Below, piece by piece: positions 36,001 to 45,000 of a stretch of 64,000 bases of DNA. Source of the stretch: an uncultured Poribacteria bacterium. Its GTDB lineage: Bacteria > Poribacteria > WGA-4E > WGA-3G. Each line of letters opens with the position of its first letter. The stretch's first letter is position 1. The stretch lies in NCBI GenBank assembly GCA_951813565.1, contig OX638351.1, positions 1,984,001 through 2,048,000 of the forward strand, given 5' to 3'. The position numbers were made by a program.

Positions 36001-39000
36001 AGATGGAACAAACATTCGGCAACTCACACCCCCACTAAATGGTTTTGATGCACATCCGTCTTTTTCACCGGATGGAAAGTCTATTGTTTTTATACGTTAT
36101 GAGCAGATAGACAAGCAAAATAAAGAAAACAGTGTGTGTGTGCTGGATCTGGAGAGCGGTCAGATTAAAAAGATCTCTGATCTCGGGATAAACGACCCGT
36201 CATTTTCACCAGATGGAAAACAGATCGTCTTTACCACTACTCCCGTTGTTGGCGGTGAAGGCGGCAATGTGTGGATTATGAATGCGGATGGCCGCGATGC
36301 ACGCCCGCTACTTCCGCCTGCACCACAAGGGAATTTGGGCGTCAGCAGATGGATACCGAAATGGTCACCCGATGGAAAAAAGATACTCTATACAGAAGAC
36401 CGGGATAAACTTGAGGTCATTGGTAACGGCATACACACACTCCCACAAGGCTATTACTATTTTATTTATGATACCAGAAACAAACAGTCTCAGCAATTAA
36501 ATATACCGAAGACTTTGCGTCCTCAGAGCATTGACTGGATGGATGGCGATAAATCTATCGTTTTCAGCGCGTATAAAAGAAAGTTGAACGAACTGCGAGA
36601 TCCTAACACCCGATATAATCCGAATATCTATAAATATCATATTGCCACAGGGAAACTGACACGTTTGACGGAACATCCAGGGTACGATTACCAATTAGAT
36701 TGGATTGATGATCGTGTCTATGCGATATCACCCGCGGGCAAAAAACCGGTGCAATGGGGGGAACTAAAAAAATTTCTTCAGAGTCGCAGTGAAGCCGTTA
36801 AAACGTTTTTCGCAAGACCTGTAATGTTTTCTGCGGATCGCACTTCATTTTGAAGGGTATAATGCCCTTCTCAAAATTAGGTGAATAACCATGCGTCTAC
36901 AAAAAGTCAGTTTGCTTTGCTTACTAATGCTACTGCTTTTCGGTGTGGTGGCAGATGCGAAAATCGTTTTTAGTTCCAGACGCGACGGTGTGAAAGGTAT
37001 TTACGTTATGGACGATGATGGTAGCAACCAGACGCTTCTCATTGAAGATGGAGAAAAGTGGTTCCCATACCCTGATTGCTGGTCGCCCGATGGTAAATGG
37101 ATTGCATTTACGAGACGTTATAGTGATAACTTGATGCATTCAGATGGCACAAACATCCAAAAACTCATAATCCCTAAAGCGTATGTCGGTAGAATGTCAT
37201 TTTCACCGGATGGCAAAGCTCTCGTTTTTAATATGAGAGTGGACATAGATGGCAAAGAGATAAAGACCGTCAACGTGCTGAATATAGAAACGGGGGAGAT
37301 AAAAGAGATAGCGGATGTCAGTGCGATCTTTTGTGATTGGTCGCCTGATGGCAAGTCTATTGTGTTCTCAAAGCCGGGCGTGGTTGACGATGTAGGTGGC
37401 ACGCTTTGGATAATGGGAGCCGATGGTAATAGACCACGAAAACTACTACCTCACCCTGAACGGGGACGCTTCAAAGCACCGCGCTGGTCACCCGATGGCA
37501 AACAGGTTGTCTATCTCCATGACGAATATGTGTGGGAACCACGGGACGGATTCGGCCTTGCGCTTATCTACAAGGCGCATCGGTATCTGATTTGTGATCG
37601 CAACGGAAGAAACATCAAAAAACTACGGATACCAAAGGACTGGCGACCAATACAAATTGACTGGATGGATGATGGCAAATCCGTTGTTTTCAGCGCGTAT
37701 GTTGGACTCCCTTTAGACGAAATGGTACATCCCGATCAGCTCCCACCGTGCAATATCTATAAGTACCATATCCCGACAACCGAGATTACGCGCCTCACAG
37801 ACCATCTGGGAAAGGATGACTCGCTGGATTGGATCAGCGATGATGTGCTTTCTGTTTCACCTAAAGGTAAGATGCAAACGCAGTGGGGTGCGATAAAAAA
37901 GTTTCTTCAGAGTCGTAGTGAAGCGTTTAAGGCGTTTTTCGCAAAACGTGTTAGTTTTCCTGCAGAATTAACGTTAAATGTGCATGCAGCATTTAGTGGT
38001 TTGTCAAAAACTCAAGATTAAGTTAACACCTTTGTGTTGAAGGGTATCTCTTTCAAGACACCCTTTCACATCTAAAGAAAAACACAATGCTAAAGCATAA
38101 ACCGATTCACCCAATTTTCAACAACCGCTGGAGTCCTGTGATTGAGTTCGCAACAGATAGTCTGCTTTTCATGCTTTTTGGCATAGCTGGAGTCGTGCTT
38201 TCTGTTCTTTCCGATTGTGTGGTGAAGGTTTTTCAGGGAAAGGATTCACGGTAAAGTCGTGTTGATTTTACTATACCTCTGATATTATTCAAATTCGCCT
38301 CTCACCGTCAGCGCACTTGCAACGGAAAGGTAATCCCTTCCTTCTTCAACCCTATCGTGGTTGTAGCTTAGTCCCAAATGTAGATTTGCAGTGAGATGGT
38401 CGCTAAGTTTGTAGCCTGCACGTAAAGTTGTCTCGTATCGTTCAGAACGTTCCTCCTTATTGGCACCGTAGTTTTCTCTGCGAATTGCCAAAGAAAAGGT
38501 ATTTGTCAGATCAATGTCGTGCTCAAGTTGTATTCTGCCGATCAGTGGCAAGCGTATACCGCCTTCGGTTCGGTAGCGATAGTCAATACTAAAATTCGGT
38601 GTAATAATAAAAGCGTCGCTTTGAATTCCGCTTCGTAGATGATCACGTAGGGTAGTACGAATTCCTAATGAAGTCCTGGTTTCGTCGCTCCATTTTTGCA
38701 TCCAACTTAGCGATGGGGTATGTGCGGTACTGTCACTGAGCGTAACTTCAAGGTTAGCATTCTTCCGTATTGTATAGCTATAACGAAGTTGGAAACTTGA
38801 TGCCTGTTGTGCATTAAGCTTAACATCCGCTTCATAAGTTTCTGCGTGTGATGTATAAGTGCTACCGTAACTTTTCCGAAAACTATCGGATGTGCTGAGA
38901 TTCGTTCCGAAGGATAACCATTTCCACGGATCCACAGAAGTGCGGACTGTATAGCGGTTGCTTTTTCGTGAATTGGTGCGTTCATCTGCTTCTTGATCAA

Positions 39001-42000: not shown

Positions 42001-45000
42001 CCTGTACCGATTCTTGGACGGACGGCACACTACTCGGCTTCCAGTTAAATTTTATGGTAGGTATTGTGGTGGTTTCCTTTACACCTTCCATGCTATCAAT
42101 CAGAGCAACGCCAACGCTATTTGGGTTGTTATGTGAATAAGCAGACTCTCCACTAAAGTCAATAGAGAGCGGAAAATTCTGGATATTGACAAAAGGCAGC
42201 GGGTTTAGTAACCACGCCATGTTGAATTCCCTACCAAAACTTGTGTTGATATTAAATGCTTGCAAGCGGTTGGGAACTTCATTGACATTCGGTATTTGGG
42301 CAGGTTTCTGCCCAGTCGTTAAGATATATCCTGTTGATACGGTAAATCCTTTTTGGTAAACCGGATTGAAATAATTCATGCCGGTCCCGTATCCTCCAAA
42401 ATAACTGGGTCCGATTCGCGAACGTCCCCCAAAACTTCCAAAACTACTATAGCCACCCGCACCAAAACCGCCGCCAAAGGTGCTATGACCTAAACCGACA
42501 TTGCCAAATCCCCTACCCGAACGTGTCCCAGAAGAAGGAAAGCCACTTGAAAATGGGTCATTCGTGAGATTATTATCCAAACCTGTTTGCATTGTTTGCA
42601 TTCCACCCAGACGATTGAACCTATCCTCAAGATTCTGTTCTCTCTCAGATTTCGGTTTCGGTTTATGTGTATAATCTAACCATACACCTACAACTGCTTG
42701 CTGTGAACCCGCGCCGAATGGGGTTTTTTCAAATTCCACTACGATTTCATCGAATTCATCAAGTTCTGTGAAAAATCGAATGGTACCAACCTCGTAGACC
42801 ATCAAGTAATCCGTATCTCGCGTTAGAACTCTCCCGTTTAGTCGCACAGTCTCACTATTTGGAATCACAAACAATCCGACATTATAGGTCTCAGATTGAT
42901 AAGAATAATCAGCAACAATTGTGTATATCTGGTCAGTACTACGGAGGGATTCAAGATAAATGGCTTCGTTGTTGAGTAAATCTCGGTGTTGATAATAAGG
43001 ATGTTGTGGATCGCTGATTTTAAAGGGTTGCAAGCTTGGGAAACGTAGTAATCCTCTGTCGTAATCTATGAACTCCGAATCAACGATTCCATCACCGTTC
43101 TGGTCCAATCCAAATATCTCAATATATGGGACAAGTCCTGCGTCAGTTTGGAATGTTTCACTTTCTCCTTGGCGGATAATTGTCAGCTGAAAATCTCGAG
43201 GGTTGATGTTTCGGTTCCCGAGGCTGTAAACATGAGATGCAGCATTTCCGCGAAAACCTTTCTCTTTTATAACAACATAACCAATCTCTTCACCCTCTTC
43301 ATCAATAGAACCGTCTCCGTTCTCATCAGCAAAAACGTTTCCAGGATTGCCGACACTACCACCACCATCGCCCAAATATTCGTAAGCGACAACGATAGTA
43401 TAACTGGAGGAGATCGGAGATAAAAACTCAATCTCGCCCGTTTCATAGTCAATGTTGTAGTCCTGCCCGGGAAACTGCGGATTGAAGTAGCCTTGACTCG
43501 TTCGTTTGCCACCTTGGTTATTGCCCACGACGCTATCGTCAATATAGATTTCCACACTCCCCTGTTTTATGGGAAGATATGCCTCGTGCAGCAGACCGTC
43601 TTCCCCTTGGTGAATTAAATAGTATCTGTTTTTAATATAATTGGCATCCGCAATCTGAATGCCGCGCGGTCCGTAACCGAAACTTGCTCTTCGCGACTGT
43701 CCACGGAACGTCCGCACTTCACGGACACCTTTGCTTCGCGATCCGAAAAGGGTCATACGGGTGTTTTTATATTCAAACACTCCTTCCAGTCCAAAAAGGT
43801 TTCGGTTGATATTTAGGAAACGGGTGTTCGGCAGGCTAAGCGTAATGTCACCGAAAGATATAGTTTTGATGAAATCTTCGGGTTTGCCTTCATACCAGAT
43901 TTTAATCTTCTGTTCTTTCGCACCACCGAGTCCATACCCACCGTAGCTGCTACCTCCATATCCACCATACCTGCCACCATACGAATCACCTGCATTGTAA
44001 TCCACGGCAATATGTGTTCGTTCGCCTACACGACCGTGCAATCCAATATTTTGGTGTTGCCGTATATTAATGCCAGTAGCACGCGGAACACCACCTCTGC
44101 CGTAACTACTGTAACCCCCATAACTACTGTAGCCACCCCCATAACTTGAACCAAAACTGTCGTATCCACCACCGCCAAATCCGCTGCTGTAGCCAAAATC
44201 TTCATAACCGTAGGAGGAGGAAAGTCCAAGGTCAAGCCCAGAACCGTAGTCCCCATAACTTCCGTAACTATAGCCGCCGTAGCGATTCAAATCGCCTTCT
44301 CCGAAATAGTGGGTTTTGTTGACTTCAATTGTCACTGATTGATCAATTTTTACTTGTAGGTTAGAATCCATAGGAAGATCAATGCCTTTGGTATCGGATG
44401 TTTTACGTGGTTTCCAATCGTAAAGTTCGGAGAGGTCACCGAGATCTGGCGGATATTTCCAACGGCGTAGTGTCTCTAAGTATGGAATCAGTATCTGACG
44501 ACGCACAGGTATATCTGAATCTATATCTTCCGTCGTTGATGGGTCGTCTGTTGTTTTCGTTTTAGATTCGCTCTGATCCCATGTATTTTTTTCTTTTTTA
44601 GGCTTCTTGCTAAATGGATTCTCAACTGGAGGTGGAGAGGTGATTTCCTCTTGAGGAGGTGGAGTGGTTTCGTCTTTTTCCGCAGTTAAGGCAGGTTTTA
44701 TAAAAACAAGAAAACAGAGGGCGAGCGTAAACAGTGATATATATCTATTTGCAGGCTGTGGCTTCAAAAGAATGTGCTCCATCATCAATGTTTAATACTA
44801 TGTGATAGTATTATAACGGAAATGCAAATGCCAGGTTTACGTTATATGGTATGTCAGTGCATAATTTATGAAAAAAGTGCAAATTTGTAATGGTTCATTT
44901 CATAAGGTGTAAAAGTTCTGGTATTAACCATATCATCTTTCTTGTGGGAGGGAGACCTTGTCCGCCCGATTTTAGTTTAAATTAGTAACAATCTGTTTGT

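Follow-up and report, generated by a model that had tools for sequence, protein, structure and literature searches.

The window, a stretch of 64,000 nucleotides from a single-contig genome of an uncultured Poribacteria bacterium, harbors a gene for a giant outer-membrane protein resembling the translocon of type IX secretion systems (T9SS), together with genes for a candidate sortase and a candidate cargo shuttle. The features are located as follows:

3616..10056, plus strand: PorU-like giant C25 peptidase of 2146 aa with a C-terminal sorting domain of its own; candidate sortase for the cargo tag.
10498..11562, plus strand: PorV/PorQ-family outer-membrane protein of 354 aa, encoded directly downstream of the PorU-like gene; candidate cargo shuttle.
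38285..44788, minus strand: sprA-like gene, a single unbroken ORF with a TTG start; the predicted 2167-aa product, a divergent SprA/Sov (T9SS translocon) homologue, is an outer-membrane protein with a signal-peptide-like N-terminal segment.
44789..46029, no strand: non-coding stretch of 1.2 kb upstream of the sprA-like gene, in which the largest ORF is at most 76 aa long.

The non-coding stretch is filled with dispersed palindromic repeats in direct and inverted orientation, two units of which are present 75 and 85 times genome-wide (up to 3 mismatches). The promoter of the sprA-like gene is presumably located here. A 2166-aa protein reported by the genome-wide survey's note for positions 38285-44785 is real and lies in the same frame, begun one codon later. 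Its similarity to the translocon was also recovered: the SprA model TIGR04189 matched the ORF with 155.7 bits (E 9.3e-46, cut-off 200) in five stretches that keep the order they have in the model (130-257, 375-672, 722-816, 895-960 and 1082-1502 of 2319). Pfam SprA_N, PF14349, scored 25.5 bits, under its cut-off of 27, and there were 0 PDB sequence matches, as the note had stated; a Poribacteria-only profile of the protein found no PDB chain by sequence either. Three other Poribacteria-type proteins scanned with TIGR04189 remained under the cut-off of 200 as well (159.3, 195.8 and 156 bits). Among 23 SprA-like homologues scanned, TIGR04189 was the sole strong family in every case, with 15 of them over the cut-off. 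When the Poribacteria-only profile was compared to a profile of bona fide SprA with hhalign, 1590 columns were aligned (probability 100%, E 8e-122) in a full-length, collinear alignment spanning 260-2087 of 2108 columns. Of the three peptide patterns most conserved in SprA, the protein reproduces one without any mismatch and the other two in recognisable form. Judged by its sequence, the window ORF is a true, full-length but very divergent SprA/Sov homologue.

An AF2 model covering residues 1001-2167, calculated from an alignment that contained true SprA sequences, has a mean pLDDT of 70.5 and displays about 25 long antiparallel strands, forming half a barrel only. In a Foldseek search with this model, the first four places went to SprA chains (E-values from 8.8e-27 to 3.4e-19, TM 0.31), a ranking to be read with the true SprAs in the alignment in mind; the next match was MtrB (E 4.5e-8). 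SprA of Flavobacterium johnsoniae and Sov of Porphyromonas gingivalis (PDB 6H3I, 8GL8) form the outer-membrane translocon of the T9SS. The poribacterial protein shares with them the size class (2167 compared to 2403 aa), a predicted signal peptide, homology that is collinear for about 1600 columns, the conserved Asp-rich motif LD[ST]EDLNGDG and, in the predicted structure, a wall of long beta-strands with SprA as top structural match. The gene stands alone, as in the known systems, and none of the genes around it was kept as a neighbour in the 11 loci compared. The protein differs from SprA/Sov in its low identity (about 20%, below the NCBIfam equivalog cut-off), in Gly/Ser/Tyr-rich low-complexity inserts (about residues 170-290 and 740-800), in a host outside the FCB group and in that the known energy-coupling partners were not detected in the genome. 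Some of the homologues in Poribacteria bear an N-terminal LysM domain.

A SprA-like homologue was found in 41 out of 41 sampled Poribacteria genomes, which represent 6 families and 11 genera. All 41 also encode a PorU-like protein (E 1e-20 or better), so that both genes occur together in each genome. The 104 best matches of the SprA-like protein have E-values of 1.8e-294 or better, all others of 2.9e-47 or weaker, and non-poribacterial homologues reach an identity of about 27% at most. The sequence comparisons indicate that the poribacterial sprA-like gene is vertically inherited and single-copy. According to NCBI taxonomy, Poribacteria are placed outside the FCB group.

Several candidate partners of the translocon are encoded in the same genome. 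The note had listed three giant C25 peptidases, and these were found again (2146, 2167 and 1750 aa), PorU-like with His and Cys motifs, one of them (3616-10056) beside a PorV-family gene. This window peptidase scored 419.9 bits with the T9SS sortase model NF033707, 0.1 bit short of the cut-off of 420, and contains Peptidase_C25 (1.5e-83), a Propeptide_C25 and, at residues 2057-2126, FlgD_ig and TIGR04183. Its best PDB sequence match is PorU of P. gingivalis (6za2_A, E 1e-23); in this alignment, the GHG and C motifs correspond. The His/Cys motifs also align with gingipain R, and their His and Cys are taken here to be the catalytic residues. Like P. gingivalis PorU (PDB 6ZA2), the peptidase combines a C25 domain with a C-terminal sorting domain of its own, and the PorV-family gene next to it exceeds the cut-off of the subfamily model. 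It is about twice as long as PorU (2146 compared to 1156 aa), occurs as three paralogues per genome and lacks a detectable PorZ partner. The adjacent protein passes the broad subfamily model only (NF033709 PorV_fam, 100.9 bits, cut-off 90), with 24.9 bits for the PorV equivalog NF033710 (cut-off 250), and it also matches Pfam UPF0164. Both window proteins are far below the models for the putative type IX sorting system PorU2/PorV2 of NCBIfam (PorU2, 160.2 of 450 bits; PorV2, NF052325, 115.7 of 325 bits). Genome-wide, six PorV/PorQ-family genes exceed the cut-off of NF033709 and two PorX proteins that of their model (586.7 and 458.4 bits, cut-off 300), in agreement with the note. All 9 relatives scanned had a PorX over the cut-off, compared to none of the 14 control genomes.

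The note's figure of about 30 tagged proteins is matched by 31 TIGR04183 hits in the genome and none in the 14 controls. With a sorting-domain profile of our own, 34 of 4857 ORFs were found, each with the domain ending no more than 15 aa from the C-terminus. Most of the tagged proteins are WD40, LRR, sulfatase, protease and adhesin proteins; LDL-receptor-like and giant adhesin proteins are also among them. Four of twelve PorV-like genes immediately adjoin a tagged gene, compared to 0.17 expected (at least four in 1 of 20000 permutations). The count is five of twelve if the PorU-PorV pair of the window, split by a spurious ORF in the ORF list, is included.

The gene is probably the poribacterial orthologue of SprA/Sov and would encode a giant beta-barrel pore for type IX cargo at the outer membrane. 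The homology of the parts, their conservation throughout the phylum, the strictly C-terminal tag and the grouping of cargo genes near PorV-like genes are observations; transport, tag cleavage, attachment and energy source are inferred, the mechanism being modelled here on the Bacteroidota system. Cargo with an N-terminal signal peptide would cross the inner membrane via Sec, recognition of its Ig-like C-terminal domain would take place at the SprA-like pore, and the cargo would pass the pore and be handed to a PorV-family barrel. A PorU-like C25 cysteine peptidase would remove the C-terminal domain and probably join the cargo to a surface glycolipid. Only the core of the system appears to be present, namely translocon, shuttle, sortase, cargo and the PorX regulator, which is well supported for the first four.

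By profile searches, the PorLM motor, the PorKN track, the PorG/PorP adaptors and PorZ were undetectable in the Poribacteria genome. In PMC12635249, secretion in Bacteroidota is described as dependent on GldK/L/M/N, PorP/SprF, PorG and PorZ. The note had stated that the controls held no Bacteroidota, but Bacteroides thetaiotaomicron is one of the 14 control genomes. Since it was over the cut-off for none of GldK/L/M/N, positive controls were set up: the Bacteroidota genome G054 responded to all models (GldK/L/M/N, PorG, PorZ, PorP/SprF), and for GldL and GldM (TIGR03513, TIGR03517, PF22827, PF12081) G054, G050 and G025 were positive. As the note had reported, GldL, GldM and GldN are missing among the curated-model matches in the Poribacteria genome, the GldN model being positive in G054. 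GldK matched sub-threshold FGE-sulfatase pieces only (37 pieces, best 119.7 bits, cut-off 350; 3 of 3 controls over it). PorG gave 0 matches and PorZ 41 bits at best (cut-off 260), both with a positive G054. The note's PorP/SprF protein could not be upheld, as TIGR03519 reached only 22 bits (cut-off 90.55), on a PorV paralogue, with G054 again positive. None of the 41 Poribacteria genomes was over the cut-off for GldM, and none for GldL. Among 122 ORFs around twelve PorV-like and PorU-like genes, no MotA/ExbB-like or GldL/M-like gene was found. With the exception of PorP/SprF, the observations of the note were thus confirmed.

The same models were applied to 61 genomes of another phylum (Bacteroidota-type), that of G001, a Melioribacteraceae chromosome belonging to the FCB group. 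SprA was over the cut-off in 49 of these, while the GldL/GldM models responded in only 14-15, and 34 of the 49 SprA-positive genomes were silent. G001 itself resembles the Poribacteria genome in that it combines SprA with numerous PorV-family genes and tagged cargo proteins but has no match to GldK/L/M/N or PorP/SprF, but differs in a SprA over the cut-off and a true PorZ (400 bits). In G026, a genuine divergent gldL-M-N-K-like operon was barely detected (36.1 bits for GldM, 23.1 bits for GldL_N). The note's proposal of a working, differently energised system stays conjectural: the missing GldKLMN is backed by working controls, but the GldL/GldM models are also silent in 34 of 49 SprA-positive genomes and hardly see the G026 operon. 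Its interpretation as a whole is supported in part: the SprA/Sov homology, the phylum-wide presence, the company of PorV, PorU, PorX and cargo and the host outside the FCB group stand; the combination of SprA without GldLM is no peculiarity of Poribacteria. Given the limited reach of the models, the motor may be either absent or merely diverged.

Tentatively, a core-only type IX pathway consisting of SprA-like pore, PorV-like shuttle, PorU-like sortase and tag might run without PorLM/PorKN. It could represent an older and commoner form, found in Poribacteria and many non-Bacteroidia lineages, with motor and track as later additions of gliding Bacteroidota; cargo release might be driven otherwise or by binding and cleavage alone. 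Because the GldL/GldM models are silent in so many SprA-positive genomes and merely graze the G026 operon, an ordinary T9SS with the usual proton-driven energisation, its PorL/M/K/N homologues diverged past the reach of sequence profiles, also has to be considered, though we regard it as rather doubtful. It is in line with the absence of a precomputed Pfam domain in all 42 relatives of the G026 GldL-like protein, with the mere 4.8 bits given to the G026 GldM-like protein by our own 12-genome GldM profile and with the presence of PorX, which acts with the motor in P. gingivalis. However, the curated models showed only noise in the Poribacteria genome, and phmmer with the divergent G026 pair as query found no match there. 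Unfiltered runs of GldL profiles of three kinds (canonical, Balneolales-type, combined) against the 4857 ORFs found nothing (best 13.6-14.0 bits), and the aligned best matches of the canonical profile (up to 13.9 bits) are located in coiled-coil regions outside membrane helices. The canonical profile does reach the G026 GldL-like protein (39.5 bits), and out of 12 canonical GldL the Balneolales-type profile recovers 10 (E<0.01). The empty result in all 41 genomes of the phylum and in the PorV/PorU neighbourhoods likewise argues against a diverged motor.

That the SprA-like barrel does another outer-membrane job, the tagged proteins being exported or anchored otherwise, is very unlikely. The sub-threshold TIGR04189 score, the inserts absent from the bona fide SprA consensus, the LysM domain of some homologues and the missing energy chain would fit such a role, but the full-length, collinear homology, the retained peptide patterns and the presence of PorU-like genes in the same 41 genomes oppose it, and to our knowledge no other function is on record for the SprA family. 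That the gene was recently acquired from Bacteroidota or is a contaminant of the assembly, as suggested by the description of the T9SS as an FCB trait, is practically dismissed, being already contradicted by the presence in all 41 genomes, the low outside identity, the genome assembled as a single 5.43-Mb contig (contamination 1.81%) and a G+C content near the gene resembling that of the remaining window.

With a SprA/Sov orthologue as the probable identity of the gene, T9SS genes would extend past the FCB group, contrary to a 2024 paper, according to which they are absent outside the FCB phyla (PMC11285876). The Poribacteria and the 34 of 49 motor-undetected SprA-positive genomes raise the question whether the motor-track-disulfide energy chain recently described for the T9SS (PMC12635249) is universal or a speciality of Bacteroidia. 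A single-cell study of Poribacteria from 2014 reported many eukaryote-like repeat proteins with a Por sorting tag but no structural genes of the Por system, so that the export route of these proteins “remains to be revealed” (PMC3909097). Based on their sequences, the SprA-like, PorU-like and PorV-like genes are candidates for this missing machinery. They provide a concrete hypothesis for the route by which a dominant sponge symbiont may bring its WD40, LRR, LDL-receptor-like, sulfatase, protease and giant adhesin proteins to the cell surface.

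This genome's candidate type IX secretion system (T9SS) translocon is encoded by one uninterrupted open reading frame with a TTG start and two ATG codons immediately after it:

38285..44788 (minus strand): sprA-like gene, 2167 aa

The genome-wide survey's note had placed the gene in the same frame, merely with a later start. The hydrophobic N-terminal stretch of the protein, ending in ...ALTA, is a predicted signal peptide. The only NCBIfam family that the protein matched was "T9SS outer membrane translocon Sov/SprA" (TIGR04189), at 155.7 bits against a cut-off of 200 (E 9.3e-46) and with five collinear stretches (model positions 130-257, 375-672, 722-816, 895-960 and 1082-1502 of 2319). 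Pfam SprA_N scored 25.5 bits, slightly under its 27-bit threshold. TIGR04189 was also the sole strong family in all 23 homologues scanned and was over the cut-off in 15 of them; three Poribacteria-type proteins in this set stayed under it, as did the query. Two observations count against SprA homology: both curated cut-offs were missed, and a profile built from Poribacteria only found no PDB chain by sequence (0 matches). A phmmer search of the PDB sequences with the SprA-like protein returned 0 matches as well. A match of a mixed profile to 6H3I was discounted as evidence, because the alignment contained true SprAs and the match was thus one by construction.

In an hhalign test, a profile confined to 15 proteins of the Poribacteria type was compared to one built from 10 proteins that each exceed the TIGR04189 cut-off. 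The two profiles aligned over 1590 columns (probability 100%, E 8e-122), spanning columns 260-2087 of 2108 on the poribacterial side and 236-2052 of 2072 on the side of bona fide SprA. Of the three most conserved SprA peptide patterns, LDSEDLNGDG is exact in the query, and the remaining two can be recognised despite substitutions. Residues 1001-2167 were modelled with AlphaFold2 (mean pLDDT 70.5, pTM 0.57) from an input alignment that included true SprAs, and the resulting fragment contains roughly 25 long antiparallel strands, which start near fragment residue 460. When the fragment was compared to the PDB with Foldseek, the four SprA entries took ranks 1 to 4, with E-values from 8.8e-27 to 3.4e-19, followed by MtrB (4.5e-8) and then by LptD and TonB-dependent barrels. 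The TM-scores were low (0.31), since just half of the barrel was folded. Overall, we take the query to be a genuine, very divergent SprA-family protein and the putative poribacterial translocon of that family. Gly/Ser/Tyr-rich low-complexity inserts (GGYSS..YG repeats) at residues of about 170-290 and 740-800 are kept in the alignment of Poribacteria-type proteins and missing from the bona fide SprA consensus.

When a collection of 5.8 billion proteins was searched with the SprA-like query, 7770 candidates yielded 136 matches at E<=0.001. The top 104 of the 136 have E-values of 1.8e-294 or better and 38-88% identity, and the few source names among them read Candidatus Poribacteria. They are followed by a gap down to E 2.9e-47 and weaker (22-27% identity), where a MAG labelled Elusimicrobia and Cloacimonadales are among the source names. 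A filter-free search that used the 1167 C-terminal residues as query yielded 264 representatives at E<=0.001, some of them aligned to their own last residues; one of the nearer distant clusters carries the label Candidatus Desantisbacteria. Within the phylum, a homologue was found in all 41 sampled genomes (38/38 of those of high quality), representing 6 families and 11 genera, almost always as one full-length frame. This presence throughout the phylum sample and the sharp drop in similarity favour vertical inheritance of the sprA-like gene over contamination or recent transfer. The G+C content near the gene does not depart from that of the remaining window. The genome consists of one contig (5,426,982 bases), with a completeness of 95.17% and a contamination of 1.81% according to markers. 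Homologues of a deeper poribacterial branch (P0085-P0099, P0102) bear an N-terminal, peptidoglycan-binding LysM domain, and one source within this branch uses the name "LysM repeat protein".

The sprA-like gene stands alone, without conserved surroundings. Across eleven loci (the window and ten diverse poribacterial ones), only sprA itself was common to all, and any neighbour occurred in three at most; a search for the motor via gene context yielded no conserved sprA neighbour in these 11 loci. Three contigs of 151-223 nt match the gene at >=99%, all from one run that is only guessed to be RNA, and they speak neither for nor against expression. The 1.2-kb gap upstream of the gene (44789-46029) is made up of palindromic repeat units of REP- or MITE-like appearance with 75 and 85 genomic copies (<=3 mismatches). 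Mobile-element genes are located at 20285-21115 and 52425-53705 (an ISKra4-like transposase fragment, IS200-type Y1 and IS1595-type transposases). At 17160-19268 (minus strand), three ORFs with WD40 repeats (293, 179 and 156 aa) follow one another and may be one gene split by frameshifts.

Two further genes of the putative pathway are encoded in the window:

3616-10056: PorU-like protein, 2146 aa, 28 kb from the sprA-like gene (NF033707 419.9 bits, cut-off 420)
10498-11562: PorV/PorQ-family gene after the PorU-like gene (NF033709 100.9 bits, cut-off 90)

Besides a Peptidase_C25 domain (1.5e-83), the PorU-like protein contains a C25 propeptide and ends in a FlgD_ig/TIGR04183 domain. For its catalytic region, P. 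gingivalis PorU (6za2_A, 1e-23) is a closer match than gingipain R (7e-13), and its "GHG" and "C" motifs, which we take to be the catalytic residues, align with both. The genome encodes three such giant proteins, and at E<=1e-20 each of the 41 phylum genomes has PorU-like genes. Six PorV/PorQ genes exceed the NF033709 cut-off, with about six weaker ones in addition, and two PorX genes exceed theirs; PorX was over the cut-off in 9/9 relatives versus 0/14 control genomes. The survey's counts of six PorV/PorQ genes, three giant C25 peptidases with one beside a PorV, and two PorX regulators were thus reproduced. An FGE-sulfatase gene beside one PorV-like gene (locus L086, 12310-13131) was not accepted as PorK, because its 273-aa product is simply a complete FGE domain, one of many in the genome. 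Directly downstream of a PorV-like gene and a 3534-aa tagged adhesin (locus L091, 4307-5170; genome positions 35307-36170), a 287-aa protein is encoded that has a signal peptide, a LysM domain and a long coiled coil, with a membrane helix at its C-terminus. For a 494-aa ORF at 59843-61327 (minus strand), NCBIfam gave no family and Peptidase_C25 matched weakly over part of its length (8.5e-11); phmmer detected no paralogue of it in the genome.

The type-A sorting domain TIGR04183 was matched by 31 proteins in this genome versus none in the 14 control genomes. A local profile seeded from 11 of these 31 detected 34 proteins among 4857 ORFs, with the domain ending <=15 aa from the C-terminus in every case, so that the survey's figure of about 30 tagged proteins lies close to the 31-34 found here. 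The family scan took in 26 of the 34 (the remaining eight being two giant adhesins, the PorU-like proteins, three in number, and three further proteins) and assigned WD40 (9), LRR (2), sulfatase (2), FG-GAP/ASPIC (2) and S8 subtilase (2), besides one each of LDL-receptor B, M28 peptidase, LVIVD and GH67N-like; five had no family. Two tagged Ig-repeat giants (3868 and 3534 aa) are encoded directly upstream of PorV-like genes. Altogether, 4 of 12 PorV-like genes immediately adjoin a tagged gene (expected 0.17; at least 4 in 1 of 20000 permutations), or 5 of 12 when the PorU-PorV pair of the window, split by a spurious ORF in the ORF list, is counted.

According to Liu et al. 2025 (PMC12635249), GldLM drives a GldK-containing track, to which outer-membrane proteins of the SprF/PorG type are disulfide-linked; no part of the energy chain described there was detectable in this genome. 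Positive controls were drawn from the phylum of an SprA-bearing Melioribacteraceae chromosome (G001); they include G054, whose gldK-L-M-N operon is canonical. GldL and GldN had no match in the Poribacteria genome and were over the cut-off in 3/3 controls (G054, G050 and G025). For GldK, just 37 pieces matching the FGE-sulfatase part of the model were found (best 119.7 bits), while 3/3 controls exceeded the cut-off at about 598 bits; several sulfatases are tagged, and both features are compatible with a sulfated-polysaccharide lifestyle. Pfam GldL_N and GldM_1st matched G054 alone among five genomes (the Poribacteria genome, G001, G054 and two others, G002 and G004); a weak GldL_N match in G001 (locus L080) was regarded as noise, as it sits in an mraZ-rsmH-ftsL region. 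PorZ reached at best 41 bits (918 in G054, 400 in G001), and PorG was not found (280 bits in G054). The PorP/SprF protein reported by the survey was not recovered: the best score was 22 bits, on a PorV paralogue, with 13 proteins over the cut-off in G054. Among the 41 phylum genomes, none had GldM (two matches at about 16.5 bits) or GldL (one match of 22 bits in a coiled-coil region) over the cut-off. None of the 122 ORFs that surround twelve PorV-like or PorU-like genes was MotA/ExbB/TonB-like. The survey's failure to find GldL, GldM, GldN and a true GldK was reproduced with models that work in the control genomes.

The reach of these models is insufficient to call the motor absent. SprA was over the cut-off in 49 of 61 genomes sampled from the phylum of G001, and GldM (TIGR, 15), GldM_1st (14) and GldL_N (15) were matched in the same genomes throughout, all SprA-positive. 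The other 34 SprA-positive genomes had no GldL or GldM by TIGR03517, PF12081 and PF22827; two of these motor-negative genomes (G011 and G006) have SprA scores >2600 bits. Either motor-less T9SS are common, or the models miss most motors outside Flavobacteriia. An operon in G026 (L098 1830-6662) that the curated models barely detect calls for caution. It encodes gldL-like (241 aa, 23.1 bits), gldM-like (380 aa, 36.1 bits) and gldN-like (309 aa) products, followed by a protein of 660 aa that has an FGE domain at its C-terminus. A protein identical to the GldL-like one is labelled Candidatus Cyclonatronum, and 0/42 of its relatives have a precomputed Pfam domain.

Direct motor searches of the Poribacteria genome were run on 4857 ORFs. 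With the G026 proteins as phmmer queries, GldL-like and GldM-like gave no match, GldN-like gave one (E 0.018, 12.6 bits) and GldK-like gave FGE-domain proteins only. Unfiltered hmmsearch with our own 12-genome profiles reached at best 13.9 bits for GldL and 11.3 for GldM, and Balneolales-type and combined GldL profiles 13.6-14.0 bits; the best matches of the 12-genome GldL profile that were aligned lie in coiled coils outside membrane helices and were discarded as noise. As controls, the canonical GldL profile scored the G026 GldL-like protein at 39.5 bits and the Balneolales GldL profile recovered 10/12 canonical GldL at E<0.01. On these results, neither known type of GldL is likely to be encoded here. 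Our own GldM profile scored the G026 GldM-like protein at just 4.8 bits, and the genome may have a GldM that has diverged strongly, or a substitute that is not homologous to it.

SprA without gldKLMN in non-Bacteroidia lineages may be noted already in the T9SS tables of McBride & Zhu 2013, Kulkarni 2017 and McBride 2019. In Abby et al. 2016 (PMC4793230), T9SS was found only in Bacteroidetes. TIGR04183 domains are described on many poribacterial eukaryote-like proteins by Kamke et al. 2014 (PMC3909097), who stated that they had not found structural genes of the Por system; theirs was the sole relevant report in the literature searched for Poribacteria and T9SS. The SprA-like, PorV-like, PorU-like and PorX proteins together with the 31-34 tagged proteins form a coherent core of a putative pathway of type IX-like export and attachment. 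In the NCBI taxonomy, Poribacteria stand among the candidate phyla and not in the FCB group, so that this core belongs to a phylum outside that group. As the apparent lack of the motor, judged by model searches, is common among SprA-bearing genomes outside gliding Bacteroidota, the motor question is wider than Poribacteria.
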